From positions 13,764,001 to 13,828,000 of the forward strand of contig NC_081331.1 in NCBI RefSeq assembly GCF_022539665.2: a stretch of DNA of 64,000 bases, given 5' to 3'. Of this stretch, positions 19,471 to 53,113 are shown one piece after another. Within the stretch, counting starts at the first letter, position 1. Each line of letters begins with the position of its first letter. The notes under the pieces are model-generated. The model made no database searches, was not told where the DNA came from, and saw only the letters and a program-made list of their open reading frames with translations. The stretch comes from Daphnia carinata (taxonomy: Eukaryota). The translations under genes and the position numbers were made by a program.

Positions 19471-19502
<32 letters not shown>

Positions 19503-29812: not shown

Positions 29813-30241
29813 CAGGCTTGCCGTAAGCGCGCTCACAAAATGTGCGAATTTCCCCTCTCGCTTACATTTTTAAGCGGCCGAGCCGCTTAATGGCATTTGA
29901 GCGTGATTACCGCCACGCTTGAAAAAAATGTGCGATCAGTACCCGCTCAAAACGTGAAATTACCACGGAAAATAGCGCCACCTAACGGTCGATACCATAA
30001 CTATTTATAAATTATTGCAGCCGACGCTTTCAAAAACTGCAAGTCATGCACAAGCAAGTATCGTTCCCTAGGCAACCGCCGTATATATAGCAGACAGCAG
30101 ACGGCAGAAGACAAAATGTGCGATAGGGCAGATTTTGAGCGCCGCACCTCAAACACAATTGAGCGTGTTTGGTGATCCGCTCATTGCTTGTTAAGAGGTG
30201 CGGCGCACCAGCTTAAAATTTTAAGCGAAACGGCAAGCCTG
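29813..30241. mobile_element. 429-bp MITE (non-autonomous DNA transposon, hAT-like)
   Basis: 12-bp terminal inverted repeats CAGGCTTGCCGT / ACGGCAAGCCTG. 8-bp target-site duplication TTCCGAAC at 29805-29812 and 30242-30249. The duplicated locus has a single TTCCGAAC (empty site) at 40451-40458. Confidence 0.92.
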
Positions 30242-32034
30242 TTCCGAACCACAGTAGGTTGAAATGTTAGCTTGATAAACATGTGAACCCTACGCTGGTT
30301 TTCGCTTCGAGCATGAACTAAAACCAACCTACGATTAACCAAACATTCACAGTCGATCTGAAAATCGGTTTATGCAGTAAAATCCCTTCCCTTAAGTAGC
30401 ATGCGTCACGTAGCCTACCTGGGAAAGTTGAACGTTGAAGATGTCCGATGCTTCCAAATCCAAGACGTGATTCCGTACGAAGGCGAATGAAGCACTACAT
30501 TTTCTTGAATCAAATACTGAAGGAAATAAAACAGAGCACCAGTCAAAGTTATTTATGATTTCATTAGAAACAGGCAATTGTAGACTATTACCTCAACATA
30601 GTTTTTCAATTGATTACAGTTTTGCACTTCATCAGCAACAAAGGGGCCTTTGTTTATCACAGAAGTATAAAATCCTAGTTGTTTCTTTATTGGAACAGCC
30701 ATCACATATTGCGAGCAAGGTTTGGTGGCAATTACCTATCCAAAGTTTGATAAGTGCTGTTTCATTTTAAGATTTAAAGATAAAGTTTTCACCTGATGTT
30801 GCTTAGCTGGTAGTATTCTGAGTTTACAATTCATTTCTCCCCATAGTGCAAGACAAACTGTTTGGAATTCCATGTATCAAACATTAGGAAAAATATCCAA
30901 TTAACATAGATGGAGAACATTCTAGGTGCTTTTAACTTTCACATGACTTCTTGTGCATTTGTAGCTATTTGGTAACCCTATTTCAATTCAGAATTGTATA
31001 AGAAAGTTAACTCCATAATCTAACAAATTATTTGAATAAAATCTAATTGCCAGAAATAAGCATTACTTATTCAGCCAGCACATTTTCCCAGGTAGCATTA
31101 TCAGCATATGATTTCCTAAACTCTGTTTGGAACATTGGATTAACTAGTTGTTTTGCAAAGTGGTCTTACATTTTGGTGCCCCTTCGTTCCCACGTGCCAT
31201 TTTTCTGTCTAAAGGAATAATCGAAAATGCTCTAGGTTAAAATAAGACAAAACGATCATTTGGCCATGAACTTTAGACACAACAACTCACTTGAATGCCT
31301 ATTGCCAAGCACCATAGTAGAAACAAAGATTCCAAAAACGAAACCATGAATTTCAATTATCCAAATTAGATTTGTTTGTCACACTAACACTTATTTCACA
31401 GTAAATCACACACAAAGAGGATGACGAAAGGCCGTGCTGAGTGTGTGCTACGAAGTACGAACTTCGAATTGTAATATTTTCTTGACTTTTGATTTCCCTT
31501 CCTCTCTGTCTACCTCACGTTGCCAACTTGAGCAGTTATTTAACTATGATAATTATTAGAACAAATCAAATCATTGATTCGTTGTAATATGGTATGCTGA
31601 GAAAGTAAAACGTAATGAAATACAGTACAAGAAATTGCATTCGTCTTTGCCGAAATTTACCGATTTGAAAAGCATTGAACTTCGTGAGAAGCGGGGCAAA
31701 AGGTTTCGTGTTAGGTATGATCAAGTTTGGCTAAGAATTGCTGTTGTTATAAAAAGCTAATTACATTTTGCTGGTTGCAGGTCGTGGCTCTCTTTTTCCG
31801 TAACTCAAAAACTTTAACGATACTTAGTCTAAAGAGTTCCTTTAGTTACCTCTTAATCAGTAGGGTTGCATAAGTTGACTATCCCTTTAGAAACGACTGA
31901 ACGTCGGTGGCGAATGTCAACACTTTGATTCAAAATTGTATTTTGAAAATCAAAATATAATGCTGGTATACAAAGGGGAAAAACTACATGTTGGGTGTAT
32001 TAAATAGTAGAACATCATTTACTCACTAAGAAGT

Positions 32035-32772
32035 TTATCCCAAAAAGGTGTCGGCTGGAACGGCACCTTTTCCGTACTGGGCCAAGGTATTCATAAATGA
32101 AGGGCCACTGTAGGGGGTGAGGTTGTTTAAATATGGGATAAAACTACCAGCAGATGGTTGGGCGGCGTTGGGCATCTCGTTTTGATAGGCAACGTATGGA
32201 ACATTGACGTAGGGGTTCCAAAAAGTAGGGACAGTGACGGGAAGTGGACGTTTCTGATTATTAGGGTTTACAGCAACTTTAGCAATGGAGGATACTGGAG
32301 AAAACGCAAAGCTTTCGTCAAAACCATTGATTTGTGGCATATCATAAATTCCTAACTGTTCCAGTACGCTCTTCAAGCTGTCAACCTTTGCTGTTGTGTT
32401 TTCGGAACGGAAAGGGATGGTAGGCGACGGGCAATTAGTGGAAGTAAAGACGCACGATAAGTACATATTGATGATTCTCTGAGTACTTTCCTTACACATT
32501 CGACTTATAAGATTCAAGTTTGTGACGAGAGCATTGAATGCATTGGCATTTCGACTTTGTTTGTCGTCAGCAGCAACTGGAACTGAATTCGTCAATAATG
32601 GCTCACGAACGACAGTAGAAGTCTCAAGAGGGATAGATGCTGCTAGTGCAGTGGCAATGATTGGAAAAAGAATGATCTGTTCAAATTCACAATGATCACA
32701 TATTATAAGATGCATATAGTTAAGTTCAAGTAAAACAGCTTTACGTTGCAATATACTTACCAAAAATTTCAT
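32035..32772 (-). CDS. Uncharacterised secreted protein (~217 aa after splicing), family copy A
   Basis: Exon 1 MKFL (32772-32761), 84-bp GTAAGT..CAG intron, exon 2 IILFPIIATALAASIP (signal peptide). TATAAAAA at ~32855-32848. Confidence 0.75.
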   Translation of the reverse strand: MKFLVSILQRKAVLLELNYMHLIICDHCEFEQIILFPIIATALAASIPLETSTVVREPLLTNSVPVAADDKQSRNANAFNALVTNLNLISRMCKESTQRIINMYLSCVFTSTNCPSPTIPFRSENTTAKVDSLKSVLEQLGIYDMPQINGFDESFAFSPVSSIAKVAVNPNNQKRPLPVTVPTFWNPYVNVPYVAYQNEMPNAAQPSAGSFIPYLNNLTPYSGPSFMNTLAQYGKGAVPADTFLG

Positions 32773-35201
32773 GGTGATTCTTGTTGTTTAAAGTATACGG
32801 GAAGATCGTTCGTTGAATACTGAATATCAAAGGGTCTACTTCTCGGGTTTTTATACACCGAGGAAGCGAATGGCAATATCACCGTAAGCATGTCATTTTA
32901 TACGAATAGAATATTACTTACAATGTCTTGACCAGCGTAATTGCCTCCTATACGATTTTCTTCCCCGCTCAAAACAAGATGAAAAAAAAAACTGGTTTAG
33001 AGTTCATTATATGGTTCCATCATACTGGATCCAGTCCAGCTAAAATGCCCCGACTCCTTGGTCAAAGCTGAAGATCAGACAAAGGTGAACTTGCATTTTT
33101 GCATACACGATGGCATGAAGTCAGTGATCTGGGCAAGTTCTCCGCCGGACCATCTGCGCATAGTATTGAGCAGCCAACCCAACTGATTCAACTTTATACC
33201 ACATTCACCGCCTCATTTATAAAGATGCCCAGTTTTAGAACCATTTCGTTGATCAAAAGTATGAAAAAAACAAGGCGAAAACCTTAATGCGCTAAAAAAT
33301 GACACCTTGCTGTCAGGCTGTTGGCCATTTTCTGTATAAATGAAAACCTAGTCAATACTTTCCCAACATTAAGTTTTATTGAATTTACGGTACGCTTATA
33401 GAACCACACTAGGTATTATCAATATCTTTTCGTTAATTGGGACCGTCTCGAAAAGGAGGGGCGTGTGAGAAGTTTGGTCTACCGGGCAAAATTGTGTCCA
33501 TGACGGATGGTTCGTGAGGCAAGGTCAGGCCAGCCAAGTACATCGGATAAAATTAGCAACAGGTAAATAGCTGCCTTCAGCATTGGCTTGCTGCACGCGT
33601 GTTCACAACGCGGGGAATTTTTATTTCAAGGTTCTGCAGGGCAGGATCAAGCGTCTGGAAACAGCCGTGCTGGATCATTTACAATGGCAGACGATGTGTT
33701 AACTAGGCAGACAGACCAAGAGTATTGTAGAAATTTTTGTTTATACCAGTTTTCTGTTAAGAATAGAGTCGACAAAGATTGATGAGGTCAAGTTGAGTTG
33801 CTGCCCACCTATTCAAGTGAACTCTGGCCGAGGCATCAACATTTGTTGCTGATTTTTCCGGAACACATGCCCACGGTGGAATGCATAATCACAAATTAAA
33901 TAGTATTTAATTATAGCTACATTATATATATTGCCAGACCATACAACAGTATGGTGAGTAATGTAATTCTATACGAATTTTGATTGGTTACTAGTAAGAA
34001 ACGCATAAATTTAAGGCGAAATAGGAATTGGTATTTAAATAGCAGTACAAAAAGAAACCTTACCATTCAGTTGAAAATAACAATTTACCAATGATTAACG
34101 AAAAATACTACTAAAGCTAATTAAACTTTAGTGCAATAATAATATTTACCGAGCACTTTACGGTGGCACTTGCAGTCTTAATTGAGATGGAACACGATTC
34201 ACCAATAAAACAAAATTCAAATAGGATATTTGTATGGTAATGCATACAAGGTATTCCGCACATACACAAATAGAAGAACAAAGTCTGAACCGGTTCCATA
34301 AAGCCTAGTGCCCACTAATTCAGGTTTCAATACTCTTGGAGGTATAAGCTGAAAGGTGAGAAAATGTGTTTCGAAATCGAAATGCTTTCGAATCGTTATT
34401 CGAATGCACAACACTTAAAATTCAACTGTCACATTAGAGAGGCATCTAAACCACAGAGGTAATGTACACGAACTAACTAGACATGGTAAAAAATATGTAG
34501 CTCAGTCTCAGCAGTAACCTATTGAAGTTGAGACTGAAAGGTGAGACAATACGATATGAAGAAAAAAAAAGAAAAGGAGAGAAAAATGAGATAACGGCCA
34601 TTATGGATTTTTTGTGACCCTTCCCACAGCTCTCGTCGCTTACAAACCCATGACTAAAAAAATTGTCAGTTTCTCGGAAAACCGTCTAGCAAAAAACAAA
34701 AAAGAAAAAAAAAGGAAAAAGGAAAAACCAGTGACCGATGAGAGAAAAAAACAAGAGGAGTGCACTAATTTAGAAAACGACATTATGTCGGAGCTGATTG
34801 TCGCTATCAAATTGTTTTAGTAAATTCGCTATTTGAAACGAAGATTTATTAACAGCGGAGACTTGGACTCATGTAAAATTTTTATTGTGAATCCGAATGA
34901 TGAAACTTGAAAAATAATTTGGACTGATTACTGTCTTAGACATTTTCTTAAGTGCTTATCCCTCAGTCCGTTCTCAATCAATATCCAGCATTTCACATCA
35001 CGATGTACCTACACATCATTCAGTCGCATCGCAATACTCTTCCACAGCAAATCAACGCCGAGCACCCAACATCGACGCAACAACTCAATTTCATAAAGAA
35101 CTACATTAAATTTCAAACAATCACGTTTACTAGATGGTATCGGCTTTCATAGATGAAGTACATGGCTTTAAATTATTTATTCAATTGAGAGTTTCATTAA
35201 T

Positions 35202-35913
35202 TTAGTAGATCTTGTAGCCTTTACCGTTGAAAGGGATGTGGACAGGCAGTTCGTATTCGTGGACGGGAGCGACGGGCAAGTGATCACCTTTGGGTTGAAA
35301 TCCGGCTTCATCAGCGGCCCAAGTGAAAGTGAACTTCTGACCCTCAGGAGAAATCCAGTAAGAAGATCCTTTGTTGGTGTTGCCAAGGACTTCGCCGTAA
35401 GATTCTTTTCCATAAGAATCATAGGTGACTCCTTGCATCTTCTTCTGGACCTGAGACTCTTCACGGGTGGTGTAATCAGACTGGGCGTAGCTATAAATTG
35501 AAACAATTCAGTTTATTAGTATGCGAATCTTGGATCCCCATATTAAAGGGATACTGAATGAAACTGACTTACCTCCATTGGCTACTGCCATCGATGTTGC
35601 GTTCATCAGATTGGCTGGTGACGGTAATGGCAGCGTACTTGTTATCCTTGTAGGCTGGTGCGGAGTAAGCTGGTGCGGGGTAGGCGGGCGCGGTGTAGGC
35701 TGGTGCTGGGTAGCTAGGAGTAGGGTACTTTGGAGCGGGGTAGCTTGGGGCTGGATAACTGGTAGCTTTGTATTCCGGTTTGAAGCTGGATGGTACGGCG
35801 GCAGCAACAGCCAAGAATGCGGCGACGAAGAACTATCGGAAAATGCCGTTATTAATTTTAAGTCCAAAGTTTTTTCCACTTTAAGAAGAAATAAAAAGCC
35901 TTACCAGCTTCAT
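35202..35913 (-). CDS. Cuticular protein, R&R (chitin_bind_4, RR-1-like) family, gene 1
   Basis: Exons 35913-35905, 35832-35573 and 35490-35202. Signal peptide, YPAP/YSAP repeats, and GSSYWISPEGQKFTFTWAADEAGFQPKGDHLP R&R motif. Confidence 0.9.
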
Positions 35914-36017
35914 GTTGTACAATGTTAGTTTGGTAAACAACTGATGCTTTTTTGTTCTCCATTCTTGGGCTTTTATAGTCAAGTGAATGGTAAGTAACAT
36001 GTAGTCGGGCATCTAGT

Positions 36018-36030
36018 TGACCTAGTTATT
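36018..36030 (-). promoter_or_regulatory. RORE-type nuclear-receptor half-site (AACTAGGTCA) upstream of cuticle gene 1; equivalents at 46228, 50705, 52478, 60141
   Basis: An A/T-rich 5' extension plus RGGTCA lies ~30-45 bp upstream of the TATA box of all five minus-strand cuticle genes. Confidence 0.55.
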
Positions 36031-36575
36031 TTGGCTGCTAGCTTTCGTTCTAGTAACATAGGTGTGGGCGTTGTGCAAAAATTCTGCACTCTCACTTTTC
36101 ACATTAGACACTTTGCAAAATGTTTCCCTTCTTTGCGATAGCTCTATCTGCCAGACCGTCTACAATTTCACATTTCAATAGCCCAGTTTTAGACGAAAGT
36201 GCTAGAATTTGCCAAATGCATTGAATAAAAGTGCTGAATCTCTTAAAATTGGTATATTGATTTCTTTCTACTCGTTCAAAGTGAACATCTTCGCGTAAAT
36301 CAAGAGAAAGGTTATTAATTGCTCAATAAACCAAAGCAGAAGTATAAGCAAAAGTACGTAGATGTTCCTACCTATTCGCCGCATGCAATCACTGCATTGC
36401 AAGAGCCATGGCCTGGAATGCAAACCATAGATAACCACCAAAGGACGGTGATCATCGCTTTCAAAAGTAGGTTGTTAAATGAAATAGAAACGACACACCC
36501 TTTTCTGCCGGCTACATAAGCCCGTGTGATTGTGATTCAAGTCATCAGTTGTTCAAATCATCAATAGTACTCAAC

Positions 36576-37329
36576 ATGAAACTAGTAAACGGAATTTTAT
36601 ATTTGATTTTGATCTTAGAAGTTTCATCTCTTATTAACAAGTTTCGATTTCTTTTCGTGTAGTTTGTCCTCGTCGCTTTCTTGGCCGTCGCTGCCGCTGT
36701 TCCATCCAGCTACAAGCCGGAATACAAAGCTCCCAGTTACCCTGCCCCAAGCTACACTACACCAAAGTACCCTACACCGAGCTACCCCGCACCGAGCTAC
36801 CCCGCACCAGCCTACCCCTCACCAGCCTACCCTACTCCCAGCTACAACAAGGACAACAAATACGCTGACATTACCATCACCAGCCAATCTGATGAGCGCA
36901 ACCTCGATGGAAGCAGCCAATGGAGGTAATTCAACTTAATTCTTTACGTTATTACCATAGGGTTTAATAATTCTTAAAAATAAATTTAATTCTTTCACCT
37001 ATAGCTACGCCCAGTCTGACTATACTACCCGTGAAGAGTCTCAGGTCCAGAAGAAGATGCAAGGAGTCACCTACGATTCTTACGGCAAAGAATCGTACGG
37101 TGAAGTCCTTGGCAACACCAACAAAGGATCATCTTACTGGGTTTCGCCTGAAGGCCAAAAATTTACCTTGACGTGGACTGCCGATGAAGCCGGTTTCCAG
37201 CCCAAGGGTGATCACTTGCCCGTCGCTCCCGTCCACGTTTACGAGCTTCCAGTTGCTCCCGTCCACGAATACGAACTCCCGGTCGCCCCCGCTCTCCCTT
37301 ATGCGCGGCGCACTGGACTCGGCTATTAA
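36576..37329 (+). CDS. Cuticular protein, R&R family, gene 2
   Basis: 3 exons (MKL / FVLVAFLAVAAA... / YAQSDYTTREES...). R&R motif; C-terminus PALPYARRTGLGY. Confidence 0.9.
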
Positions 37330-37521
37330 AATTTAAACATTTCGTTAGTGATATCTATGCGATGCGACCTATGCAGGCCTAACTTATTCTAATTATGTTC
37401 AAATAAACGAATGGAAACGGAACACATTTCAAACATGAAACTTGTTGCTCCTAAAAATTATTGTTGTGATAGGGAACAAAATAAAATTACAAAAAAGATA
37501 TACCTGGATTTTGTTACTCAT

Positions 37522-37535
37522 CTGCCACCTAGCGG
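37522..37535 (-). promoter_or_regulatory. CTCF-like motif CCGCTAGGTGGCAG; equivalents at 47730, 54149, degenerate at 61781
   Basis: Matches the CTCF core consensus and lies 278-295 bp upstream of the TATA of each candidate ncRNA copy. Confidence 0.5.
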
Positions 37536-37826
37536 CTGAACGCGGAGAAAATTCCCGATCTTTAGCGTTCCATTCACGCACGGTGATTACGTCATACAAA
37601 TCTTATATTTTGCATTTCCACGCATAATTATTGTTCTTTAATGCATTCTATCTTATTAAAGCAACAATGTAAAAAGGAAAAAATAAAGTTCATTTCTTGT
37701 TTTCGTCAATTTAGTTTATTATGTTTGCGAAATCTAACAAAAACGTGCAAAAAACACCACTTGTATTTTGTAAACGATGGTTGCATCGTCTGGGAACGGT
37801 ATAAAAGACTTGATAAAGCACTCCAA

Positions 37827-38247
37827 GGATAGTAACGGTGTTAGCTCGCTAGCACCGTTACGGTGGGATGCCATAGGTTCAACTATGTGCGATGGTATAC
37901 GGTGGCTAATATGGTGATGGACGTAGTCCGACCATTTGGAGATTGTCTGACGCTAATTCCAGGTCGAAATGGCTTCAAGACTATCGTAAAGATCCACATT
38001 AGCTACAGTATGCTATCACACATGGCTGCACTCATGGTAAATGGTGGCTATATGGTGATGAACGTAGTCCGACCATTGGAGATTGTCTGACGCTCATTCC
38101 AGGTCGAAATGGCTTCAAGACTGCGGTAAAGATCCATATAGTCTGAACAACCTTGGCTCGACTGAAAGCGAACGCTGTACCCCTAAATGGAGGAAGCTAG
38201 GAGTCAACACGGATTATCGGCCGGTAATTCGACCAAATCCCACTTTT
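37827..38247 (+). ncRNA. Candidate structured ncRNA of unknown family, copy 1
   Basis: TATAAAAG at 37800; 5' hairpin 37832-37861; GTGGGAT/ATCCCAC closing helix; two ~141-nt internal repeats; TTTTGTTTTT end. Confidence 0.6.
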
Positions 38248-41200
38248 GTTTTTACATTTTACCCGTTCATCCTGCAACGTACCTGCGTAAGTAGTATGCG
38301 TAACGCATAATATACAAGCTTTAAAATATTGATTACGCTTTATTTACCCTTGATTTCCTATGACTTAGTTCTTTAAGGCGTATTAACACTGTGTATGAAA
38401 TTTATTGCCTGGCAAGAACGTGTCCTTGGATGGTTTGCTGGACATACCCCTATACGTTAAATAATAGAATGAAATTATTAATAGATTTTTGTTTTCAGGA
38501 ACGCGTTAAATTCTTATATTACGGTTCTTTCAGAAAAGGCTAGACAATGGAAAACGACCGTGATGAATCATTTTTGCATAATAATTTATCTAACGCAGGA
38601 GCGAGCAGGATGGTGAAACTCTTATCTTACCTAGTGGGCTCTTGGCGATAAGTTGATAAAGATTTAATAGGTCACGGTTACTTGTTGCCAACCCGTTCAA
38701 GTCGAAACTGGTCAAAGCTTCAAATTTTGCATTTCACTTGCTGGAATGCAGGTGAAATATTTCGGCATAACGAGGGATTAGTGGCGCACAAAATCAAGTC
38801 ACAAGTGAAGTTGAATTTCAGCCTACATCATTTAGTAATATAACAACATTGCAACAACTTGCACGATTTTATGAAATTTTTGAGAGACTAATCTGGCTCA
38901 TAATTTTGAGGCCAGAGCCGACGGCCTCCTGCAAGTTTCAGGTGGAACAGGTAGTACTGATTAAATGGCAGTACCAAAAGAAAGACGTTTCCATAAAGTT
39001 AATAGTTGCATGTTGCCAATCACTAACACAAGCAAAATTTTGCTCGAAAATTAAAACATCCACAATTTTTTTTGTTGAGAACGAGATGCACGACACGCAG
39101 TATTTGACTGTACACTATGGAATTACCGAAATTATAGAGATACAAAAGTTAAACTGTTCGCGCTGGTAAAAATGACATGTGGCATGGTTTCAGTTAATAG
39201 TTTTGGAGGTAGAGGCTGAAAAGTGAGAAAAAATTGAAAGAAAAAGAAAGGAAGCGGCCATCATGGATTTTTGATCCCCTCTTCCCCCAGTTCCAATATG
39301 CGGATGTTTTCTCTACCTTAAGAAATGCATTTTCTCGAAACTGTTGAACCAAAAAGAAAGTATAAATAATAAAAAAGTGGCGGGTGGGGTATGAGAAAAA
39401 CAATCACTTGAAGGCGCTAAAATGGGTGGAGCAATGGGGATAGCGCACTCGAGCGAATCAACCACGGGAACTTGGGTGGGAAATAATAATTATATTAATG
39501 GATTATTACCGGGCAGACGGTACGCTGTCGTCATTCGCACGTACAAGAGAGAGAGACTACGTCGTAACCGAACTTGACTACATCTAAAGGCCAAGAGAAA
39601 AACGCTGTCCGCCTGTTTCAGCAATAAAACGTCTTTACATTTCACGATCATTCACTTGGTGAGATGCTATAGTGAAAGTAAAAGAGGATCGATTCGTTGA
39701 ACTGAATAAAGGGCTTTCAAATTGATGGCGCTATGGGTCGTTGTAGACGGTTGGATGCTACCCAAGCACCGCCAGTTCATCCTTAACGAGGCAGAAAACA
39801 TGTGTAGCATGACGTTTGTTGGCGTGGTGAAAGGAGGTGGCTACAAATAGGCATGCCCGGCTAAAAACATTCAAAATTGGCAGCTTATAGGATCGTATAA
39901 AAGGTATTAAAGCGATACCGCTATAGGCAACAGGGATGAATTAAGCAAAAAACTTGGACGAAATAAAAAATGATTGGTACGTTTTAACAGTACAGCGTCT
40001 CTGGCAGGACGTGCTGGACACCACAAAAGTCGATATAAGAACGCGACCCACCGAATGGGACAAACACTTGCACTCGAATCGTCTTCTTAAAATGTCGGCC
40101 TTGCCTTTCTCCTTTTGTTTCATCGCTCTCTTATGCGCACACGTGCAGGCATTTCATTATCGATGGAGCCATCTACATCCAGGTAACTTTGTCGGGGTCA
40201 ACGTCGGTTTCGGCTACTGTAGCGCGTCAATAGAGCAATGGAAATGCATAATACCTTTCGAATAGCGTTGTGAAGGTCTTTGTTTTGATTGAAAAACTAG
40301 AATCGGATGTGCTCGTCGAGGACACAACTATCAGAATAATAATTGAATTAACTAGCCGAAATAATTGAATTCGTAAAAAAATTTAACTGAATTGGTAAAC
40401 TGTAGCCCAGCCTGTACGTGTAGCAATCATCTTTTTAAATTTCGAACTAATTCCGAACCACAGTAGGTTGAAATTTTAGCTTGATAAACATGTGAACCCT
40501 ACGCTGGTTTTCGCTTCGAGCATGAACTAAAACTAACCTACGATTAACCAAACATTCACAGTCGATCTGAAAATCGGTTTATGCAGTAAAATCCCTTCCC
40601 TTAAGTAGCATGCGCCACGTAGCCTACCTGGGAAAGTTGAACGTTGAAGATGTCCGATGCTTCCAAATCCAAGACGTGATTCCGTACGAAGGCGAATGAA
40701 GCACTACATTTTCTTGAATCAAATACTGAAGGAAATAAAACAGAGCACCAGTCAAAGTTATTTATGATTTCATTAGAAACAGGCAATTGTAGACTATTAC
40801 CTCAACATAGTTTTTCAATTGATTACAGTTTTGCACTTCATCAGCAACAAAGGGGCCTTTGTTTATCACAGAAGTATAAAATCCTAGTTATTTCTTTATT
40901 AGAAGAGCCATCACATATTGCGAGCAAGGTTTGGTGGCAATTACCTATCCAAAGTTTGATAAGTGCTGTTTCATTTTAAGATTTAAAGATAAAGTTTTCA
41001 CCTGATGTTGCTTAGCTGGTAGTATTCTGAGTTTACAATTCATTTCTCCCCATAGTACAAGACAAACTGTTTGGAATTCCATGTATCAAACATTAGGAAA
41101 AATATCCAATTAACATAGATGGGGAACATTCTGGGTGCTTTTAACTTTCACATGACTTCTTGTGCATTTGTAGCTATTTGGTAACCCTATTTCAATTCAG

Positions 41201-42243
41201 AATTGTATAAGAAAGTTAACTCCATAATCTAACAAATTATTTGAATAAAATCTAATTGCCAGAAATAAGCATTACTTATTCAGCCAGCACATTTTCCCAG
41301 GTAGCATTATCAGCATATGATTTCCTAAACTCTGTTTGGAACATTGGATTAACTAGTTGTTTTGCAAAGTGGTCTTACATTTTGGTGCCCCTTCGTTCCC
41401 ACGTGCCATTTTTCTGTCTAAAGGAATAATCGAAAATGCTCTAGGTTAAAATAAGACAAAACGATCATTTGGCCATGAACTTTAGACACAACAACTCACT
41501 TGAATGCCTATTGCCAAGCACCATAGTAGAAACAAAGATTCCAAAAACGAAACCATGAATTTCAATTATCCAAATTAGATTTGTTTGTCACACTAACACT
41601 TATTTCACAGTAAATCACACACAAAGAGGATGACGAAAGGCCGTGCTGAGTGTGTGCTACGAAGTACGAACTTCGAATTGTAATATTTTCTTGACTTTTG
41701 ATTTCCCTTCCTCTCTGTCTACCTCACGTTGCCAACTTGAGCAGTTATTTAACTATGATAATTATTAGAACAAATCAAATCATTGATTCGTTGTAATATG
41801 GTATGCTGAGAAAGTAAAACGTAATGAAATACAGTACAAGAAATTGCATTCGTCTTTGCCGAAATTTACCGATTTGAAAAGCATTGAACTTCGTGAGAAG
41901 CGGGGCAAAAGGTTTCGTGTTAGGTATGATCAAGTTTGGCTAAGAATTGCTGTTGTTATAAAAAGCTAATTACATTTTGCTGGTTGCAGGTCGTGGCTCT
42001 CTTTTTCCGTAACTCAAAAACTTTAACGATACTTAGTCTAAAGAGTTCCTTTAGTTACCTCTTAATCAGTAGGGTTGCATAAGTTGACTATCCCTTTAGA
42101 AACGACTGAACGTCGGTGGCGAATGTCAACACTTTGATTCAAAATTGTATTTTGAAAATCAAAATATAATGCTGGTATACAAAGGGGAAAAACTACATGT
42201 TGGGTGTATTAAATAGTAGAACATCATTTACTCACTAAGAAGT

Positions 42244-42981
42244 TTATCCCAAAAAGGTGTCGGCTGGAACGGCACCTTTTCCGTACTGGGCCAAGGTATT
42301 CATAAATGAAGGGCCACTGTAGGGGGTGAGGTTGTTTAAATATGGGATAAAACTACCAGCAGATGGTTGGGCGGCGTTGGGCATCTCGTTTTGATAGGCA
42401 ACGTATGGAACATTGACGTAGGGGTTCCAAAAAGTAGGGACAGTGACGGGAAGTGGACGTTTCTGATTATTAGGGTTTACAGCAACTTTAGCAATGGAGG
42501 ATACTGGAGAAAACGCAAAGCTTTCGTCAAAACCATTGATTTGTGGCATATCATAAATTCCTAACTGTTCCAGTACGCTCTTCAAGCTGTCAACCTTTGC
42601 TGTTGTGTTTTCGGAACGGAAAGGGATGGTAGGCGACGGGCAATTAGTGGAAGTAAAGACGCACGATAAGTACATATTGATGATTCTCTGAGTACTTTCC
42701 TTACACATTCGACTTATAAGATTCAAGTTTGTGACGAGAGCATTGAATGCATTGGCATTTCGACTTTGTTTGTCGTCAGCAGCAACTGGAACTGAATTCG
42801 TCAATAATGGCTCACGAACGACAGTAGAAGTCTCAAGAGGGATAGATGCTGCTAGTGCAGTGGCAATGATTGGAAAAAGAATGATCTGTTCAAATTCACA
42901 ATGATCACATATTATAAGATGCATATAGTTAAGTTCAAGTAAAACAGCTTTACGTTGCAATATACTTACCAAAAATTTCAT
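42244..42981 (-). CDS. Uncharacterised secreted protein, family copy B (identical to A)
   Basis: Identical translation to 32035-32772, inside the duplication. Confidence 0.75.
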   Translation of the reverse strand: MKFLVSILQRKAVLLELNYMHLIICDHCEFEQIILFPIIATALAASIPLETSTVVREPLLTNSVPVAADDKQSRNANAFNALVTNLNLISRMCKESTQRIINMYLSCVFTSTNCPSPTIPFRSENTTAKVDSLKSVLEQLGIYDMPQINGFDESFAFSPVSSIAKVAVNPNNQKRPLPVTVPTFWNPYVNVPYVAYQNEMPNAAQPSAGSFIPYLNNLTPYSGPSFMNTLAQYGKGAVPADTFLG

Positions 42982-45411
42982 GGTGATTCTTGTTGTTTAA
43001 AGTATACGGGAAGATCGTTCGTTGAATACTGAATATCAAAGGGTCTACTTCTCGGGTTTTTATACACCGAGGAAGCGAATGGCAATATCACCGTAAGCAT
43101 GTCATTTTATACGAATAGAATATTACTTACAATGTCTTGACCAGCGTAATTGCCTCCTATACGATTTTCTTCCCCGCTCAAAACAAGATGAAAAAAAAAA
43201 CTGGTTTAGAGTTCATTATATGGTTCCATCATACTGGATCCAGTCCAGCTAAAATGCCCCGACTCCTTGGTCAAAGCTGAAGATCAGACAAAGGTGAACT
43301 TGCATTTTTGCATACACGATGGCATGAAGTCAGTGATCTGGGCAAGTTCTCCGCCGGACCATCTGCGCATAGTATTGAGCAGCCAACCCAACTGATTCAA
43401 CTTTATACCACATTCACCGCCTCATTTATAAAGATGCCCAGTTTTAGAACCATTTCGTTGATCAAAAGTATGAAAAAAACAAGGCGAAAACCTTAATGCG
43501 CTAAAAAATGACACCTTGCTGTCAGGCTGTTGGCCATTTTCTGTATAAATGAAAACCTAGTCAATACTTTCCCAACATTAAGTTTTATTGAATTTACGGT
43601 ACGCTTATAGAACCACACTAGGTATTATCAATATCTTTTCGTTAATTGGGACCGTCTCGAAAAGGAGGGGCGTGTGAGAAGTTTGGTCTACCGGGCAAAA
43701 TTGTGTCCATGACGGATGGTTCGTGAGGCAAGGTCAGGCCAGCCAAGTACATCGGATAAAATTAGCAACAGGTAAATAGCTGCCTTCAGCATTGGCTTGC
43801 TGCACGCGTGTTCACAACGCGGGGAATTTTTATTTCAAGGTTCTGCAGGGCAGGATCAAGCGTCTGGAAACAGCCGTGCTGGATCATTTACAATGGCAGA
43901 CGATGTGTTAACTAGGCAGACAGACCAAGAGTATTGTAGAAATTTTTGTTTATACCAGTTTTCTGTTAAGAATAGAGTCGACAAAGATTGATGAGGTCAA
44001 GTTGAGTTGCTGCCCACCTATTCAAGTGAACTCTGGCCGAGGCATCAACATTTGTTGCTGATTTTTCCGGAACACATGCCCACGGTGGAATGCATAATCA
44101 CAAATTAAATAGTATTTAATTATAGCTACATTATATATATTGCCAGACCATACAACAGTATGGTGAGTAATGTAATTCTATACGAATTTTGATTGGTTAC
44201 TAGTAAGAAACGCATAAATTTAAGGCGAAATAGGAATTGGTATTTAAATAGCAGTACAAAAAGAAACCTTACCATTCAGTTGAAAATAACAATTTACCAA
44301 TGATTAACGAAAAATACTACTAAAGCTAATTAAACTTTAGTGCAATAATAATATTTACCGAGCACTTTACGGTGGCACTTGCAGTCTTAATTGAGATGGA
44401 ACACGATTCACCAATAAAACAAAATTCAAATAGGATATTTGTATGGTAATGCATACAAGGTATTCCGCACATACACAAATAGAAGAACAAAGTCTGAACC
44501 GGTTCCATAAAGCCTAGTGCCCACTAATTCAGGTTTCAATACTCTTGGAGGTATAAGCTGAAAGGTGAGAAAATGTGTTTCGAAATCGAAATGCTTTCGA
44601 ATCGTTATTCGAATGCACAACACTTAAAATTCAACTGTCACATTAGAGAGGCATCTAAACCACAGAGGTAATGTACACGAACTAACTAGACATGGTAAAA
44701 AATATGTAGCTCAGTCTCAGCAGTAACCTATTGAAGTTGAGACTGAAAGGTGAGACAATACGATATGAAGAAAAAAAAAAGAAAAGGAGAGAAAAATGAG
44801 ATAACGGCCATTATGGATTTTTTGTGACCCTTCCCACAGCTCTCGTCGCTTACAAACCCATGACTAAAAAAATTGTCAGTTTCTCGGAAAACCGTCTAGC
44901 AAAAAACAATAAAGAAAAAAAAAGGAAAAAGGAAAAACCAGTGACCGATGAGAGAAAAAAACAAGAGGAGTGCACTAATTTAGAAAACGACATTATGTCG
45001 GAGCTGATTGTCGCTATCAAATTGTTTTAGTAAATTCGCTATTTGAAACGAAGATTTATTAACAGCGGAGACTTGGACTCATGTAAAATTTTTATTGTGA
45101 ATCCGAATGATGAAACTTGAAAAATAATTTGGACTGATTACTGTCTTAGACATTTTCTTAAGTGCTTATCCCTCAGTCCGTTCTCAATCAATATCCAGCA
45201 TTTCACATCACGATGTACCTACACATCATTCAGTCGCATCGCAATACTCTTCCACAGCAAATCAACGCCGAGCACCCAACATCGACGCAACAACTCAATT
45301 TCATAAAGAACTACATTAAATTTCAAACAATCACGTTTACTAGATGGTATCGGCTTTCATAGATGAAGTACATGGCTTTAAATTATTTATTCAATTGAGA
45401 GTTTCATTAAT

Positions 45412-46123
45412 TTAGTAGATCTTGTAGCCTTTACCGTTGAAAGGGATGTGGACAGGCAGTTCGTATTCGTGGACGGGAGCGACGGGCAAGTGATCACCTT
45501 TGGGTTGAAATCCGGCTTCATCAGCGGCCCAAGTGAGAGTGAACTTCTGACCCTCAGGAGAAATCCAGTAAGAAGATCCTTTGTTGGTGTTGCCAAGGAC
45601 TTCGCCGTAAGATTCTTTTCCATAAGAATCATAGGTGACTCCTTGCATCTTCTTCTGGACCTGAGACTCTTCACGGGTGGTGTAATCAGACTGGGCGTAG
45701 CTATAAATTGAAACAATTCAGTTTATTAGTATGCGAATCTTGGATCCCCATATTAAAGGGATACTGAATGAAACTGACTTACCTCCATTGGCTACTGCCA
45801 TCGATGTTGCGTTCATCAGATTGGCTGGTGACGGTAATGGCAGCGTACTTGTTATCCTTGTAGGCTGGTGCGGAGTAAGCTGGTGCGGGGTAGGCGGGCG
45901 CGGTGTAGGCTGGTGCTGGGTAGCTAGGAGTAGGGTACTTTGGAGCGGGGTAGCTTGGGGCTGGATAACTGGTAGCTTTGTATTCCGGTTTGAAGCTGGA
46001 TGGTACGGCGGCAGCAACAGCCAAGAATGCGGCGACGAAGAACTATCGGAAAATGCCGTTATTAATTTTAAGTCCAAAGTTTTTTCCACTTTAAGAAGAA
46101 ATAAAAAGCCTTACCAGCTTCAT
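45412..46123 (-). CDS. Cuticular protein, R&R family, gene 3 (duplicate of gene 1)
   Basis: Same structure as gene 1, with one F>L change in KFTLTW. Confidence 0.9.
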
Positions 46124-46786
46124 GTTGTACAATGTTAGTTTGGTAAACAACTGATGCTTTTTTGTTCTCCATTCTTGGGCTTTTATAGTCAAGTGAATGG
46201 TAAGTAACATGTAGTCGGGCATCTAGTTGACCTAGTTATTTTGGCTGCTAGCTTTCGTTCTAGTAACATAGGTGTGGGCGTTGTGCAAAAAATTCTGCAC
46301 TCTCACTTTTCACATTAGACACTTTGCAAAATGTTTCCCTTCTTTGCGATAGCTCTATCTGCCAGACCGTCTACAATTTCACATTTCAATAGCCCAGTTT
46401 TAGACGAAAGTGCTAGAATTTGCCAAATGCATTGAATAAAAGTGCTGAATCTCTTAAAATTGGTATATTGATTTCTTTCTACTCGTTCAAAGTGAACATC
46501 TTCGCGTAAATCAAGAGAAAGGTTATTAATTGCTCAATAAACTAAAGCAGAAGTATAAGCAAAAGTACGTAGATGTTCCTACCTATTCGCCGCATGCAAT
46601 CACTGCATTGCAAGAGCCATGGCCTGGAATGCAAACCATAGATAACCACCAAAGGACGGTGATCATCGCTTTCAAAAGTAGGTTGTTAAATGAAATAGAA
46701 ACGACACACCCTTTTCTGCCGGCTACATAAGCCCGTGTGATTGTGATTCAAGTCATCAGTTGTTCAAATCATCAATAGTACTCAAC

Positions 46787-47537
46787 ATGAAACTAGTAAA
46801 CGGAATTTTATATTTGATTTTGATCTTAGAAGTTTCATCTCTTATTAACAAGTTTCGATTTCTTTTCGTGTAGTTTGTCCTCGTCGCTTTCTTGGCCGTC
46901 GCTGCCGCTGTTCCATCCAGCTACAAGCCGGAATACAAAGCTCCCAGTTACCCTGCCCCAAGCTACACTACACCAAAGTACCCTACACCGAGCTACCCCG
47001 CACCGAGCTACCCCGCACCAGCCTACCCCGCACCAGCCTACCCTACTCCCAGCTACAACAAGGACAACAAATACGCTGACATTACCATCACCAGCCAATC
47101 TGATGAGCGCAACCTCGATGGAAGCAGCCAATGGAGGTAATTCAACTTAATTCTTTACGTTATTACCATAGGGTTTAATAATTCTTAAAAATAAATTTAA
47201 TTCTTTCACCTATAGCTACGCCCAGTCTGACTATACTACCCGTGAAGAGTCTCAGGTCCAGAAGAAGATGCAAGGAGTCACCTACGATTCTTACGGCAAA
47301 GAATCGTACGGTGAAGTCCTTGGCAACACCAACAAAGGATCATCTTACTGGGTTTCGCCTGAAGGCCAAAAGTTTACCTTGACGTGGACTGCCGATGAAG
47401 CCGGTTTCCAGCCCAAGGGTGATCACTTGCCCGTTGCTCCCGTTCACGTCTACGAGCTTCCCGTTGCCCCCGTCCACGAATACGTTCTCCCCGTTGCCCC
47501 AGCTCTCCCTTATGCGCGCACTGGACTCGGCTATTAA
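46787..47537 (+). CDS. Cuticular protein, R&R family, gene 4 (duplicate of gene 2)
   Basis: Same structure as gene 2; 3' end differs (HEYVLP, PYARTGLGY). Confidence 0.9.
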
Positions 47538-48034
47538 AATTTAAACATTTCGTTAGTGATATCTATGCGATGCTACCTATGCAGGCCTAACTTATTCTAA
47601 TTATGTTCAAATAAACGAATGGAAACGGAACACATTTCAAACATGAAACTTGTTGCTCCTAAAAATTATTGTTGTGATAGGGAACAAAATAAAATTACAA
47701 AAAAGATATACCTGGATTTTGTTACTCATCTGCCACCTAGCGGCTGAACGCGGAGAAAATTCCCGATCTTTAGCGTTCCATTCACGCACGGTGATTACGT
47801 CATACGAATCTTATATTTTGCATTTCCACGCATAATTATTGTTCTTTAATGCATTCTATCTTATTAAAGCAACAATGTAAAAAGGAAAAAATAAAGTTCA
47901 TTTCTTGTTTTCGTCAATTTAGTTTATTATGTTCGCGAAATCTAACAAAAACGTGCAAAAAACACCACTTGTATTTTGTAAACGATGGTTGCATCGTCTG
48001 GGAACGGTATAAAAGACTTGATAAAGCACTCCAA

Positions 48035-48455
48035 GGATAGTAACGGTGTTAGCTCGCTAGCACCGTTACGGTGGGATGCCATAGGTTCAACTATGTGCGA
48101 TGGTATACGGTGGCTAATATGGTGATGGACGTAGTCCGACCATTTGGAGATTGTCTGACGCTAATTCCAGGTCGAAATGGCTTCAAGACTATCGTAAAGA
48201 TCCACATTAGCTACAGTATGCTATCACACATGGCTGCACTCATGGTAAATGGTGGCTATATGGTGATGAACGTAGTCCGACCATTGGAGATTGTCTGACG
48301 CTCATTCCAGGTCGAAATGGCTTCAAGACTGCGGTAAAGATCCATATAGTCTGAACAACCTTGGCTCGACTGAAAGCGAACGCTGTACCCCTAAATGGAG
48401 GAAGCTAGGAGTCAACACGGATTATCGGCCGGTAATTCGACCAAATCCCACTTTT
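48035..48455 (+). ncRNA. Candidate structured ncRNA, copy 2
   Basis: Appears identical to copy 1; TATA at 48008. Confidence 0.6.
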
Positions 48456-49866
48456 GTTTTTACATTTTACCCGTTCACCCTGCAACGTACGTGCGTATCG
48501 GGGGAAAAAATCAGATCAAGGTACGCTAAGCTTTACTGAACTGATTACGCTTTATTTACCCTTTATTTCTTATGGCTTAGTTCTTTAAGTTACTTGGTAT
48601 GAAATTTATTTCCTGGCAAGGGCGTGTCCTTGGATGATTTGCTGGACATAGCCATGCATGTTAAATAATAGAATGAAATTATTAACAGGTTTCGTTCTCA
48701 GTAACGATATCTTATATTACTATTCTTTCAGAAATGGTCAGACAATGGAAAACGAGCGTGGTGAACCATTTTTGCATAATAAATTATCTAACACAGGAAC
48801 GAGCAGGATCGTGAAACTCTTGTCTTACCCAGTCTGCTGTTGGCGATATAGTCGATACAGATTTAATGGGTCACGGTTATTTTCTGCCAACACGTTCAAG
48901 TCGAAACTAGTCAAAGCTTCAAGTTTTACGTTTCACTTGCTGGAATGCACGTGAAATAATGCGGCATAGTATCGGTGGCGCACAAAATCAAGTCACAAGC
49001 GAAGTTGAAGCCGACGGCATCCTTACGTTTCAGGTGAAACAGGTAGTACTGATTAAATGGCAGTACCAAAAGAAAGACGTTCCCACAAAGTTCATAGTTA
49101 CATATTGAAAACCATTTACACACATAAAATTTTATTCGCAAATGAAAATATCCACAAGCTTTCTTGTTGAGAACGAGATTCACGACACGCAGTATTTCAT
49201 TTTTACACTTTAGAATTGCAGAAAACAGAGAGATAGAAAAGTCAAACTGTTCGGGCTGGGCACAAATGACATGTGGCATGGTTTCAGTTAATAGCTTTGG
49301 AGGTAGAGGCTGAAAAGTGAGAAAAATTTAAAAGAAAGGAAGCGGCCATTATGGATTTTTGATCGCCCCTTCCCTCAGCTCTGATGTGCGGATGTTTTCT
49401 CTACCTTTAAAAATAATCTTCTCTAAACTGTCGAGCCAAAAAAAGTCTAAATAATAAAAAGTGATGGATGGAATAAGAGAAAAACAATCACTTGAGGCGC
49501 TAGGGTGGAGTAAAACAAAAATAATTATCAGCTGACATCCTGTTAGCATTTTCCAGACGTCATTCATTAATGAAATTTAATTCAATTAGTTGTTCCTCCC
49601 ATTACGCCGTATCTATGCTGCGTTGTAAATATAAAGAAGTATTTAACTCTAAAACTTAAATTTAAGGCATTGGAATTACCAAATAATTGTGATTGGTGAT
49701 TCTGATCGATGTAGAGCGAGAAGCAATTTTGATTAATGAAGTAGATTAATAGTATCTTTGATAGACATCGTTTTATATTTCCTCGTATTTACACCAACAA
49801 TACAAAAAGCATCAAGGCATAAAATACACGGATTTAAGTTATTTGTGCGGTCAGGTAGTCAATAAT

Positions 49867-50611
49867 TTAGTAGATCTTGTAGCCTTTGCCGTTGAATGGG
49901 ATGTGGACGGGGGCAACGGGGAGAACGTATTCGTGGACGGGGGCAACGGGGAGCTCGTAGACGTGAACGGGAGCAACGGGCAAGTGGGCACCCTTGGGTT
50001 GGAATCCAGCATCATCAGCGGTCCAGGTCAAAGTGAATTTCTCGCCTTCAGGAGAAACCCAGTAAGAGGATCCTTTGTTGGTGTTGCCCATAACATCTTC
50101 GTATGTAGCCTTTCCGTAAGAATCGTAAGCGACTCCTTGCATCTTCTTCTGAACTTGGGACTCTTCGCGGGTAGTGTAGTCAGACTGGGCGTAGCTTTAT
50201 CGGATAAGATTAAACATAGCATATATGAAAAATCTGTTTACTTAAGAAGGATTAATTTAAATACAAATCTTACCTCCATTGGCTGCTGCCATCAAGATTG
50301 CGGACATCAGATTGGCTGGTGACGGTGATGTCAGCGTACTTGTTGTCCTTGTAGGATGGGGCGGAGTAGGCTGGTGCGGAGTAGGCGGGGGCGGAGTAGG
50401 CGGGGGCGGAGTAGGCTGGTGCGGAGTAGGCTGGTGCAGAGTACTTTGGTGCGGAGTAGCTGGGGGCTGAGTAGCTTGGAGCTTTGTAGCTTGAAGGAGC
50501 AGCGGCGGCAACGGCCAAGACAGCGGCGATGATAAACTGTAAAACAAAACATTTCAGTATTAGAACAAGTGAAATGAATTTGATGATTGTGTTGTTGCTC
50601 ACCAGCTTCAT
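49867..50611 (-). CDS. Cuticular protein, R&R family, gene 5 (unpaired)
   Basis: MKL exon, YSAP repeats, R&R motif GSSYWVSPEGEKFTLTWTADDAGFQPKGAHLP, end FNGKGYKIY. Confidence 0.9.
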
Positions 50612-51666
50612 GTTGAATTCGGTTGAGTGAAACAACTGATGCTGTCGGTATGTGAAATCCTGGCTTATATAGTCGGTGAATGGAAATATTGGCCAACTAT
50701 GAAGTGACCCAGATTTGAGCAACTTACATTTTCATTTGGTTGTTTTTACACCATCATATTAGTGGCCCTTCTAGTCCCTTCTCTTTGCCAATCCTTTTTA
50801 GGTAAAGTCTTGAGTATTTTTAAAAGTTACGTTTCTATTTGCATTATCCAAACTAGCCCTTGATGCGGCACTTCATTGACTTTGCTGTTGGCTATAGATT
50901 TTGATAGTTAACTAAAATTTTAAGAGAAGGGCCGTTACAACGCGTTATAATTAAATGAATACTTGGATACGTACAGTAGGGCTTAGTACATATATCTAAT
51001 TCGTTCACGTAACGCTCGCAATTAAAATTATAGCGTCCCTTTTTAATGTGCTTTAGAATCAAACCAAAGTAGGCAATATGCCTGGTAAACGGTTACCATT
51101 TAAAATTTGGATAGTTAAAGTTTTAGATAACTACACTATAACATTTATAATCGCATCATGGGAATTTTGGTTACTCTTAAGAGATATGCTAAGGGATTAA
51201 ACAATATTTAAGATATTGTTAAGATACTGCTTGTGTTGTGTTTGTTAAGATATTTAAGGAATTAACAATACTTCAGGATGCAATACACGATTCTGAATTC
51301 CATTAACAAGAGCAGTTTGTTATGAAGAAATAATCCAGCAAAATGACAATACAGATGACAATTGTAGATGAATTATCTTGCCATTAAAACGTTGGCTAGA
51401 AAAAGTTGAAAGACAGGTTTTTCAGGTAAAAAAAAAATCTAATATTTGTTTCTTATCTGACAGAACTAAAATACTATTAGAATATTGGCATGATGCCATG
51501 AATGTTCGATGGTTAAACTTGAATGTAACCTTCATGTGCTTGTCAAAATTTACCAAAACGCACCTGGGTAGATTGATTGCATTTATATTTACTCCGCGCT
51601 TGCGATAGACGAGATATACAGAAACTATCGGACATACTTTAAATATTAAATCATTTGTCGGGAAAT

Positions 51667-52386
51667 CTAGTAAATCTTGTAACCCTTGCCATTGAAGGGG
51701 ATGTGAACGGGGAGCTCATATTCATGGACGGGAGCAACTGGGAGCTCGTATTCATGGACGGGGGCTACGGGCAAGTGGGCACCCTTGGGCTGGAATCCGG
51801 CATCATCAGCGGTCCAGGTCAAAGTGAATTTCTCGCCTTCAGGGGAAACCCAGTAAGAGGATCCCTTGTTGGTGTTGCCCATAACATCTTCGTAGGTGGC
51901 CTTTCCGTAAGAATCGTAAGCGACTCCTTGCATCTTCTTCTGGACTTGGGATTCTTCGCGGGTAGTGTAGTCAGACTGGGCGTAGCTGTGAATTGAAACA
52001 ATTCAATTTATTAATATGTGAATCTTGGATCCCCATATTAATGGGATAATGAATGAAGCTGACTTACCTCCATTGGCTGCTGCCATCGATGTTGCGTTCA
52101 TCAGATTGGCTGGTGACGGTGATGTCAGCGTACTTGTTATCCTTGTAGGCTGGTGCGGAGTAAGCTGGTGCGGGGTAGGCAGGGGCGGAGTAGGCTGGTG
52201 CGGGGTACTTTGGTGCGGGGTAGCTTGGGGCTGGGTAGCTGGGAGCTTTGTAGCTGGATGGAACAGCGGCGGCTACGGCCAAGACAGCGGCGATGACGAA
52301 CTGTCAGTCAATGTATTTATTAAATAAAGATCTAAAGTTTTTAGTTGTTCAGAAAATATAATAATAAAATGCCTTACGAGTTTCAT
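51667..52386 (-). CDS. Cuticular protein, R&R family, gene 6
   Basis: Same 3-exon structure and motifs. Confidence 0.9.
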
Positions 52387-53113
52387 GTTGTACTAGGATG
52401 ACTTGATAAACAACTGATGGTTCTATTTCTACGTTTCTAAGCTTATATAGTCAAGTGAATGGTACGAAACATTCAACTGACCTAGTTGTTGTGCTGCTCA
52501 ATCTGGGCGTTGTGCAAAAATAGTGCACTCTCACTTTTCACGTTAGGCAACACATAGAAAAAATTTGTCTTACTAGTAACTGCTAATTTCCTTTTTGTGC
52601 ATAATTTGAGCTAATAGTGCTCTACTGGCGTTCTTTTTTTGTAACAGGATCTGATTAATTCACTATCATTCGTTTTTAAAATGATAACTCGTCAGGGGTG
52701 TTAACTTTCGCTAAGGATAGTAAATTTAATCCATGAACTAGATGTCAACATAGCATTTGTCTGAATCGGGTATTGCTATTCCCTTCTACCAATTCAATGT
52801 TAATCTATTGGAAATATCAGGCAAATGAATTGGTGTATGCCAATTCAAAAGCGAGCTATAAATGGAGAAAGTGAATGCTGATTTATAAAGAAAAAAAAAA
52901 TCTTTTTGATTCCTACGTGTAGAAAACGATAACTACATGATGGTCTGGCATACAAATCATAGGTAACCACCAAGGAACGGTTGATCGACGTTTTCAAAAA
53001 TAGGTTAAGAAACGAAGCGAATGGAAAATGACACACCCTTTCCTGTTGGCTACATAAACCTGTTTGAAAACTATTCAAAACATCAGTTGTTTAAGTCTTC
53101 CACCATAGTCAAC

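Follow-up and report, generated by a model that had tools for sequence, protein, structure and literature searches.

A multicopy non-coding unit in a Daphnia carinata cuticle gene cluster, best read as a small-RNA gene family that is new to the literature and probably served by RNA polymerase III

The 64,000-nt stretch of Daphnia carinata DNA analysed here (contig NC_081331.1 of assembly GCF_022539665.2, positions 13,764,001 to 13,828,000; hereafter the window, in which all positions are counted) contains a cluster of RR-type cuticle protein genes, and inside this cluster lie all five copies, as counted within the window, of a conserved, strongly folding, multicopy non-coding unit. Copy 1 starts with the TATA box TATAAAAG at position 37800 and consists of this box, a predicted RNA of 417 nt (about 37832-38248) and a T-run. 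The TATA box is embedded in a 16-nt block, GTATAAAAGACTTGAT (37799-37814, + strand), that shows no variation in copies 1, 3 and 4. The predicted RNA opens with a hairpin (37832-37861), and the T-run TTTTGTTTTT (T4 G T5; 38244-38253, + strand) is the predicted terminator, past which copies 1, 3 and 4 have no homology; it reads T8 in copy 3 and T4 in copy 4. A TATA box, a unit of about 420 nt and a closing T-run are what a preliminary description of this DNA had reported, and all three are found. [quoted passage not shown] Ten substitutions and one insertion separate them between 37800 and 38244 (11 of 445 positions), in agreement with the roughly 11 differences previously counted by eye. In a forced global alignment read in 50-nt bins, identity is 92-100% across 37800-38249, compared with 66-70% directly upstream and 52-68% downstream; at the TATA box it steps up to 98% from 66%, and past the T-run it drops to 54%. 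The earlier claims that similarity is confined to the interval from TATA box to T-tract, and that the copies are more alike than the cuticle genes beside them, therefore both hold, identity among the adjacent cuticle genes being 81-85% in their last exons. In the 1 kb downstream of the unit, no homology was found in any copy pair except copies 1 and 2. The lack of an internal TTTT carries no significance, with 1475 of 2000 shuffles likewise free of this word.

Copies 1-4 sit 470-670 nt downstream of paralogous + strand cuticle genes. Copy 2 (47720-48461, + strand; TATA box at 48008) is identical to copy 1 in its RNA part because both lie inside a recent 8.6-kb tandem duplication (30242-38815 and 40451-49009, 98.4% identity), which carries cuticle genes together with the two copies; copy 2 is therefore not independent evidence. 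This duplication could instead represent an uncollapsed allele in the assembly. Copy 3 (54143-54889, + strand; TATA box at 54437) has a predicted RNA at 54469-54886. Copy 4 (61771-62348, + strand; TATA box at 62076) is a short, one-armed type with a predicted RNA of 241 nt (62108-62348), and has in common with copy 1 the 16-nt TATA block, the 5' hairpin, the 3' domain and the last bases before the T-run. Its RNA folds with a z of -1.9 (10 of 200 shuffles as good), and its single degenerate module is weak, being equalled by 42 of 2000 shuffles. Copy 5 (62657-63047, - strand) is decayed: profile matches place its upstream region (E 9e-4) and 3' domain (E 2e-3) in the right order, and a TATA box, 5' hairpin and arm were not found between 63047 and 62657. 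It lies in the opposite orientation and behind a different gene than copies 1-4. With the one-armed copy 4 and the decayed copy 5, the family is larger than earlier noted. The one arm of copy 4 points to a tandem arm duplication as the likely origin of the long form. Copies 1 and 3 may have been kept alike by selection and by gene conversion at the DNA level while their flanks drift; we infer conversion because even the 24-nt spacer before the predicted +1 is identical in the two copies, this spacer being different in copy 4 and in a relative from sequencing run X1 (see below).

The predicted 417-nt RNA of copy 1 folds with -155.8 kcal/mol (z -5.87, 0 of 100 shuffles equal) and retains a z of -4.2 when the 5' hairpin is removed. 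No strong z appears within the unit in 200-nt sliding windows because the long arms require more than 200 nt. At the predicted RNA start, the 5' terminal hairpin is a perfect 13-bp stem (37832-37861, + strand) with an ensemble probability (p) of 1.0. It is followed by the 5' strand of a closing helix (37862-37869, + strand) that pairs with 38237-38244 (p 0.93 in copy 1, 0.95 in copy 3), and near the other end lies the 3' hairpin (38210-38231, + strand; p 0.99). All three had been read by eye in the preliminary description, the closing helix as 37863/38237, and the ensemble bears them out. Between them, arm 1 (37869-38039, + strand; z -6.7, 0 of 100 shuffles) is a long interrupted stem bearing module 1 (37911-37997), and arm 2 (38046-38143, + strand; z -3.0) holds the second module, 141 nt after the first and 91% alike. 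The proposed tandem modules of about 141 nt thus stand as regards their offset, their likeness and their stems (p 0.86-1.0 in the copy 1 ensemble); the helices within module 1 reach p of 0.2-0.55, and its inner fold appears ambiguous. At the base of each module, the centroid fold places a 6x6 internal loop that could form tandem G.A pairs; in arm 1 this loop (37915-37920 / 37988-37993) is accompanied by a conserved CAGGUC. The 3' domain (38144-38209, + strand) is common to all five copies and has weak predicted structure (z -0.3), and its alignment between copies 1 and 4 scores 74.5, a value equalled by 0 of 2000 shuffles. A long arm formerly drawn from 37870 to a strand ending at 38157 is not retained: the complementarity is real, because the 3' strands of arms 1 and 2 are homologous, but this pairing is 11.3 kcal/mol worse than that with 38008-38039 and has a mean pair probability of 0.002.

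Relatives of the unit occur in all three sequencing runs that were examined (X1, X4 and X8, among 15 listed, all with shares of 0.04-0.06). Nine contigs, 1-5 per run, match at 95-99% (one), 90-95% (five) or below 90% (three); they come from two organisms and an invertebrate gut metatranscriptome, and between them take in the TATA box with the 5' hairpin, both modules and the 3' domain. Their indels include single-nucleotide, frame-breaking ones. Read by eye, the 3' hairpin in X1, X4 and X8 retains its stem, with a longer loop and one G-C pair changed to G-U, and arm 2 of an X4 contig gains one U-A pair. In X1 the modules are again in tandem, with a 159-nt period, and a copy-4-like sequence follows the 5' hairpin (about 25 of 30 letters by eye), the conservation of copy 4 in relatives thus consisting of a single 30-letter loose contig end. 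Among the copies, the 5' hairpin is paired in 39 of 39 cells, and the three one-sided changes in copy 4 all yield G-U on the + strand, that is, mismatches on the other strand or in DNA; RNA-level selection on the + strand is therefore favoured. Copy 4, too, has a helix at the module base, formed by other letters (p 0.94), its 3' strand having been aligned by sequence alone. Outside these runs, the sole match of a metagenome pattern scan was an unrelated, bacterial-looking contig that fits the pattern only, a 21-nt pattern from the 3' domain had 0 matches in viral contigs and 0 in genome contigs, and a search of viral contigs anchored on cuticle proteins gave 14 candidates, of which 0 were confirmed.

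Upstream of the unit, a conserved and likely promoter region (37512-37799, + strand in copy 1) contains invariant blocks at -309, -287, -258, -150, -126 and -110, counted from a +1 at 37832 that is itself predicted from sequence. Across this stretch of about 310 nt, 175 of 324 ungapped columns are invariant in copies 1, 3 and 4. Local alignments of the upstream regions score 160-209 against shuffle maxima of 40-48, the conservation extends to four diverged copies, the decayed copy 5 among them, and the block at 37682-37716 is also present in a relative's contig. Few type-3 Pol III genes are known (U6, U6atac, 7SK, MRP, Y and vault, with some telomerase and RNase P RNAs). In the unit, 24 nt separate the end of the TATA box (37807) from the predicted +1 (the first G, 37832), and the same spacing is found in copy 4; in type-3 genes, the TATA box lies 21-27 nt upstream of the RNA, and the MRP genes of insects and crustaceans carry a proximal sequence element (PSE), a TATA box and a T-run (PMC4287351). 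A conserved block occupies a PSE-like position in the copy alignments (37777-37792, + strand; -55 to -40), with 7 nt between it and the TATA box at copy 1, compared with a PSE-to-TATA gap of 12 nt in Drosophila (PMC1761439). The TATA spacing and the 3' T-run of at least four T agree with the type-3 Pol III layout that had been proposed, and we lean towards Pol III as the transcribing polymerase.

The unit had also been said to belong to no recognised family. Rfam gave no match when the whole window was searched at the gathering threshold, and four sub-regions gave chance-level matches only; the weak ones, MIR6217, sR2, sR14, SNORD65 and snoMBII-202, score 10.8-20.9 bits against cut-offs of 38-110. 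We found no description of such an RNA in Daphnia in the literature, most subscription papers lying outside the scope of that search.

As a plausible, tentative reading that we place somewhat below an even chance, the unit would encode a Pol III-made RNA of about 417 nt working as a 7SK-type scaffold with two copies of one protein-binding arm. An external promoter would drive a short, U-tailed RNA that starts at the G of the 5' hairpin and stops in the T-run. Its ends would be protected by the hairpin and, at the U-tail, by a La-family protein, as is general for Pol III transcripts, and the closing helix would join them. Like 7SK, the body would then be a scaffold or a decoy, with one binding site per arm; the long type would double the arm and with it the binding valency, and the short type would keep one. 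Candidate binding surfaces, as predicted, are the 6x6 loop, which could form tandem G.A pairs, and the conserved CAGGUC. A possible but doubtful version of this proposal is a hitherto unknown crustacean class of Pol III RNAs, one- or two-armed and set together with a CTCF site among cuticle genes, that would bind and titrate a protein regulator through a repeatable arm of about 100 nt, perhaps as a stand-in for 7SK in cladocerans or linked to control of the moult cycle.

The likeness to 7SK includes ends that are brought together, long stems and a 3' hairpin. In 7SK, this hairpin comes after the closing helix, whereas in the unit it lies inside the closing helix, with no hairpin following, and the 5'-most element is a closed hairpin. 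7SK, known in Drosophila as a 444-nt RNA and also as snRNA:7SK:94F (PMC8406779), further shares with the unit a similar size, a TATA box and a T-run. The arms of the unit present GAUG on the 5' strand facing GAUC on the 3' strand, and a GAUC to GAUG change is found in 7SK:94F (PMC8406779). Unlike 7SK, the unit is multicopy, its arm is duplicated, an M1/M3/M8 core is not found, and the GAUC/GAUC pair that forms the HEXIM site is absent, copy 4 having neither word.

Several observations weigh against the scaffold proposal. The 7SK and Arthropod_7SK models do not match the window or the four sub-regions. TATAAAAG occurs ten times in the window, four times at the RNA family and several times upstream of genes of the cuticle cluster; because the same TATA word precedes these local cuticle genes, the type-3 Pol III assignment is not proven. 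The PSEA core of Drosophila, as given in PMC1761439, is missing from the block at -55 to -40. Arm 2 of copy 3 prefers other pairings in the ensemble. The 5' hairpin shows zero two-sided changes, and the 3'-domain consensus shows a two-sided change in only 2 of 22 pairs. Of the changes between copies 1 and 3, three (37886, 38008 and 38137) disrupt predicted pairs, one leaves its pair intact and two move a register. On the 5' strand of X8, seven changes amount by eye to two pairs gained, one kept, three lost and one open, a tally that assumes the uncovered partner strand to be unchanged. Covariation is suggestive, not established, because the hairpin has no two-sided change and the changes between copies 1 and 3 are mixed. 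Finally, the contigs of X8, the one run recorded as RNA, also lie on the upstream region and extend at least 255 letters past 38220, at a depth of 4-8; DNA or read-through may therefore account for them. No discrete transcript was seen in the X1, X4 and X8 contigs, in which ends and strand are not visible.

The shared TATA word is also the starting point of an unlikely alternative, in which RNA polymerase II (Pol II) transcribes the unit from this same box and the long arms are cut by Drosha/Dicer to give small regulatory RNAs, or the transcript acts as a structured long non-coding RNA. Contigs that extend beyond the T-run fit such a transcript, as does the long interrupted stem of arm 1, for which the best Rfam match is a generic pre-miRNA (20.9 bits vs 110). 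However, homology stops right at the T-run and no conserved AATAAA follows it, no long complementarity to genes in the window was found, and by eye the stems are more variable among the relatives than the module heads are, the opposite of what a miRNA would show.

Alternatively, the locus could work as DNA, with the unit separating cuticle cassettes as a boundary, or serving between them as an enhancer, anchored by CTCF, homogenized by gene conversion and giving rise to no functional RNA; we regard this as improbable. It draws on a CTCF-like site in the upstream region (37522-37535, - strand; also at 47730, 54149 and 61781) that is present at all four intact copies and discernible in the decayed copy 5. 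With at most one mismatch, four of the six matches that this motif, picked after the sequence had been seen, has in the window lie at the intact RNA copies (0.63 expected). The other two CTCF-like sites lie at 29975-29988 (- strand), ahead of the duplication by 250 nt and with no RNA copy after it, and at 18756-18769 (+ strand). The identity of copies 1 and 3 in the untranscribed spacer and the lack of a discrete transcript in the contigs are likewise expected of a DNA element, and the minus strand of the copy 1 unit folds almost equally well (z -5.49), so that folding energy alone cannot fix the strand. What argues for an RNA instead is that the G-U-type changes are particular to the + strand, that the order of TATA box, hairpin, closing helix and T-run is fixed in two very unlike paralog types, and that the relatives keep the 3' hairpin with an altered loop.

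The end of homology at both edges of the unit, together with the reversal of copy 5 behind a different gene, could also reflect a non-autonomous mobile element, either the source gene of a short interspersed element (SINE) or a HINE/DINE-1-like rolling-circle element, although we think this quite improbable. The minus strand, with short end repeats, central tandem repeats, an end hairpin and a T-run at one end, is loosely HINE-like, but HINEs have subterminal repeats of 12-15 bp and T-runs at both ends (PMC4067079), whereas the end repeats of the unit measure 7-8 bp and, in this orientation, an A-run takes the place of T beside one of them, for which reason a HINE or Helentron was rejected. 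A tRNA-headed SINE was rejected as well: ARAGORN found 0 genes and thus no tRNA head, there is no Rfam match, and the conserved promoter is external, which would be expected to be lost in a retroposed copy. Moreover, copies 1-4 keep a fixed place behind paralogous cuticle genes, and each run gave only 1-5 contigs.

It is very unlikely that the unit descends from 7SL, as the preliminary description had ventured, with an S domain that was duplicated and has decayed. Its 5' hairpin, long closing helix and U-tail recall the outline of SRP (signal recognition particle) RNA (RF00017), CAGG and AATATGG patches occur in both, and in one of the folds predicted for module 1 the arm head carries two hairpins. 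Yet SRP covariance models matched none of the four sub-regions at the gathering threshold or at E up to 10, and the same search scored a control, a 279-nt metazoan SRP RNA (L002), at 204 bits. All 18 pairwise comparisons with this one, non-cladoceran sequence fell within shuffles (best z 2.07, 56 of 1000). Helix 8 of SRP RNA has a GNRA loop and a CAGG/AGCAG symmetric loop, also visible in the L002 consensus; allowing three mismatches, its motif has six matches in the window and 0 in any copy, which confirms the earlier remark that the helix-8 AGCAG strand is absent. The unit further differs in its multi-arm body and in having a perfect 13-bp hairpin where 7SL has its Alu domain, and neither an SRP pattern nor an RNase P pattern found a match in viral contigs (0 each). 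As to L002 itself (1-279), this animal SRP RNA lies in a bacterial species-representative genome and represents animal contamination.

Least probable of all, at barely more than a slight chance, is a far-derived paralog of RNase P (RF00009) or RNase MRP (RF00030) that keeps the AGGUC loop and a 3' UUCGACC as P4 remnants: a P4-like long-range helix can be drawn (GGUCGAA with UUCGACC near the 3' end of copy 3, p 0.86; GGUCG/CGACC in copy 4, p 0.97) and GAAAG, which fits the MRP word GARAR, occurs in both long and short types, but RNase P and MRP models match none of the sub-regions, no P2, P3 or P8 hairpin was seen by eye and no full CR-I/CR-V words were present, GAAAG lies outside any stable hairpin loop, and the conserved 3' hairpin would compete for the P4-like strand. 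In D. pulex, ten RPR-like genes are described, and MRP keeps its Pol III signals (PMC4287351).

Further candidates were tried and rejected. Insect telomerase RNAs with a type-3 promoter are short and divergent, carry a TATA box and a T-run, and are missed by family models (PMC9841428). A template has to exceed one telomere repeat in length. The unit, by contrast, offers none: complementarity to TTAGG repeats extends over at most 5 nt (copy 1) or 4 nt (copy 4), at least 6 being needed, and 0 of 12 combinations of repeat and copy reach the needed length. A protein-coding role is contradicted by the 78-aa frame of copy 3, which is frameshifted to 59 aa in copy 1 and has no Pfam match. For a box C/D snoRNA, the best match is 15.2 bits against 42, no stem is seen by eye around C and D, and GUGAUGA occurs in module 2 only, module 1 having GUGAUGG. 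The 6x6 loop fits by eye the RUGAN/NGAN core that defines SECIS elements, yet there is no AAR loop and no selenoprotein context. A K-turn fits in its tandem G.A stem, with the second stem off by 3 nt, and a hammerhead is suggested by core-like GUGAUGA and GUAAA words, with stem III not found. Separately, nine bases at 38222-38230 (CGGTAATTC) equal the reverse of the SNORD65 guide region and are presumably of the same sense as the rRNA it targets; in relatives the last base is different, and the likeness is probably due to chance.

To our knowledge, animals have seldom yielded new families of structured RNAs that carry their own promoters. If the small-RNA gene reading is correct, the natural pair of one-armed and two-armed forms in Daphnia, an established model, would offer a handle on the binding partner, the family would supply a Daphnia Pol III promoter, and concerted evolution would here be limited to an RNA gene within a diverging cluster of protein genes.

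The last exon of the RR-type cuticle protein gene upstream of copy 1 lies at 36961-37329 (+ strand); its paralog at 47172-47534 matches PF00379 and Daphnia cuticle proteins, and all named matches among the 120 homologues listed, of 164, are Daphnia proteins. The cluster comprises about nine RR-type genes (35150-37330, 45360-47540, 49820-53770 and 59250-61420), with several head-to-head pairs and 15-nt tandem repeats coding SAPAY-like units. Paralogous open frames at 32035-32787 (-), 42244-42996 (-) and 57081-57644 (+) have a signal-peptide-like start, the frame at 57084-57641 having no Pfam match. A Pro/Ala-rich repeat frame with FPAPIS units (63068-63599, -), likewise without a Pfam match, ends about 34 nt before the upstream region of copy 5. 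Farther away, translation read by eye indicates an ankyrin-repeat gene with a P-loop NTPase-like domain at 17410-21275 (-), and the AT-rich region at 12256-14140, with direct and inverted repeats of a period of about 593 nt and a 700-nt imperfect palindrome at 13216-13927, is possibly a foldback or satellite element.

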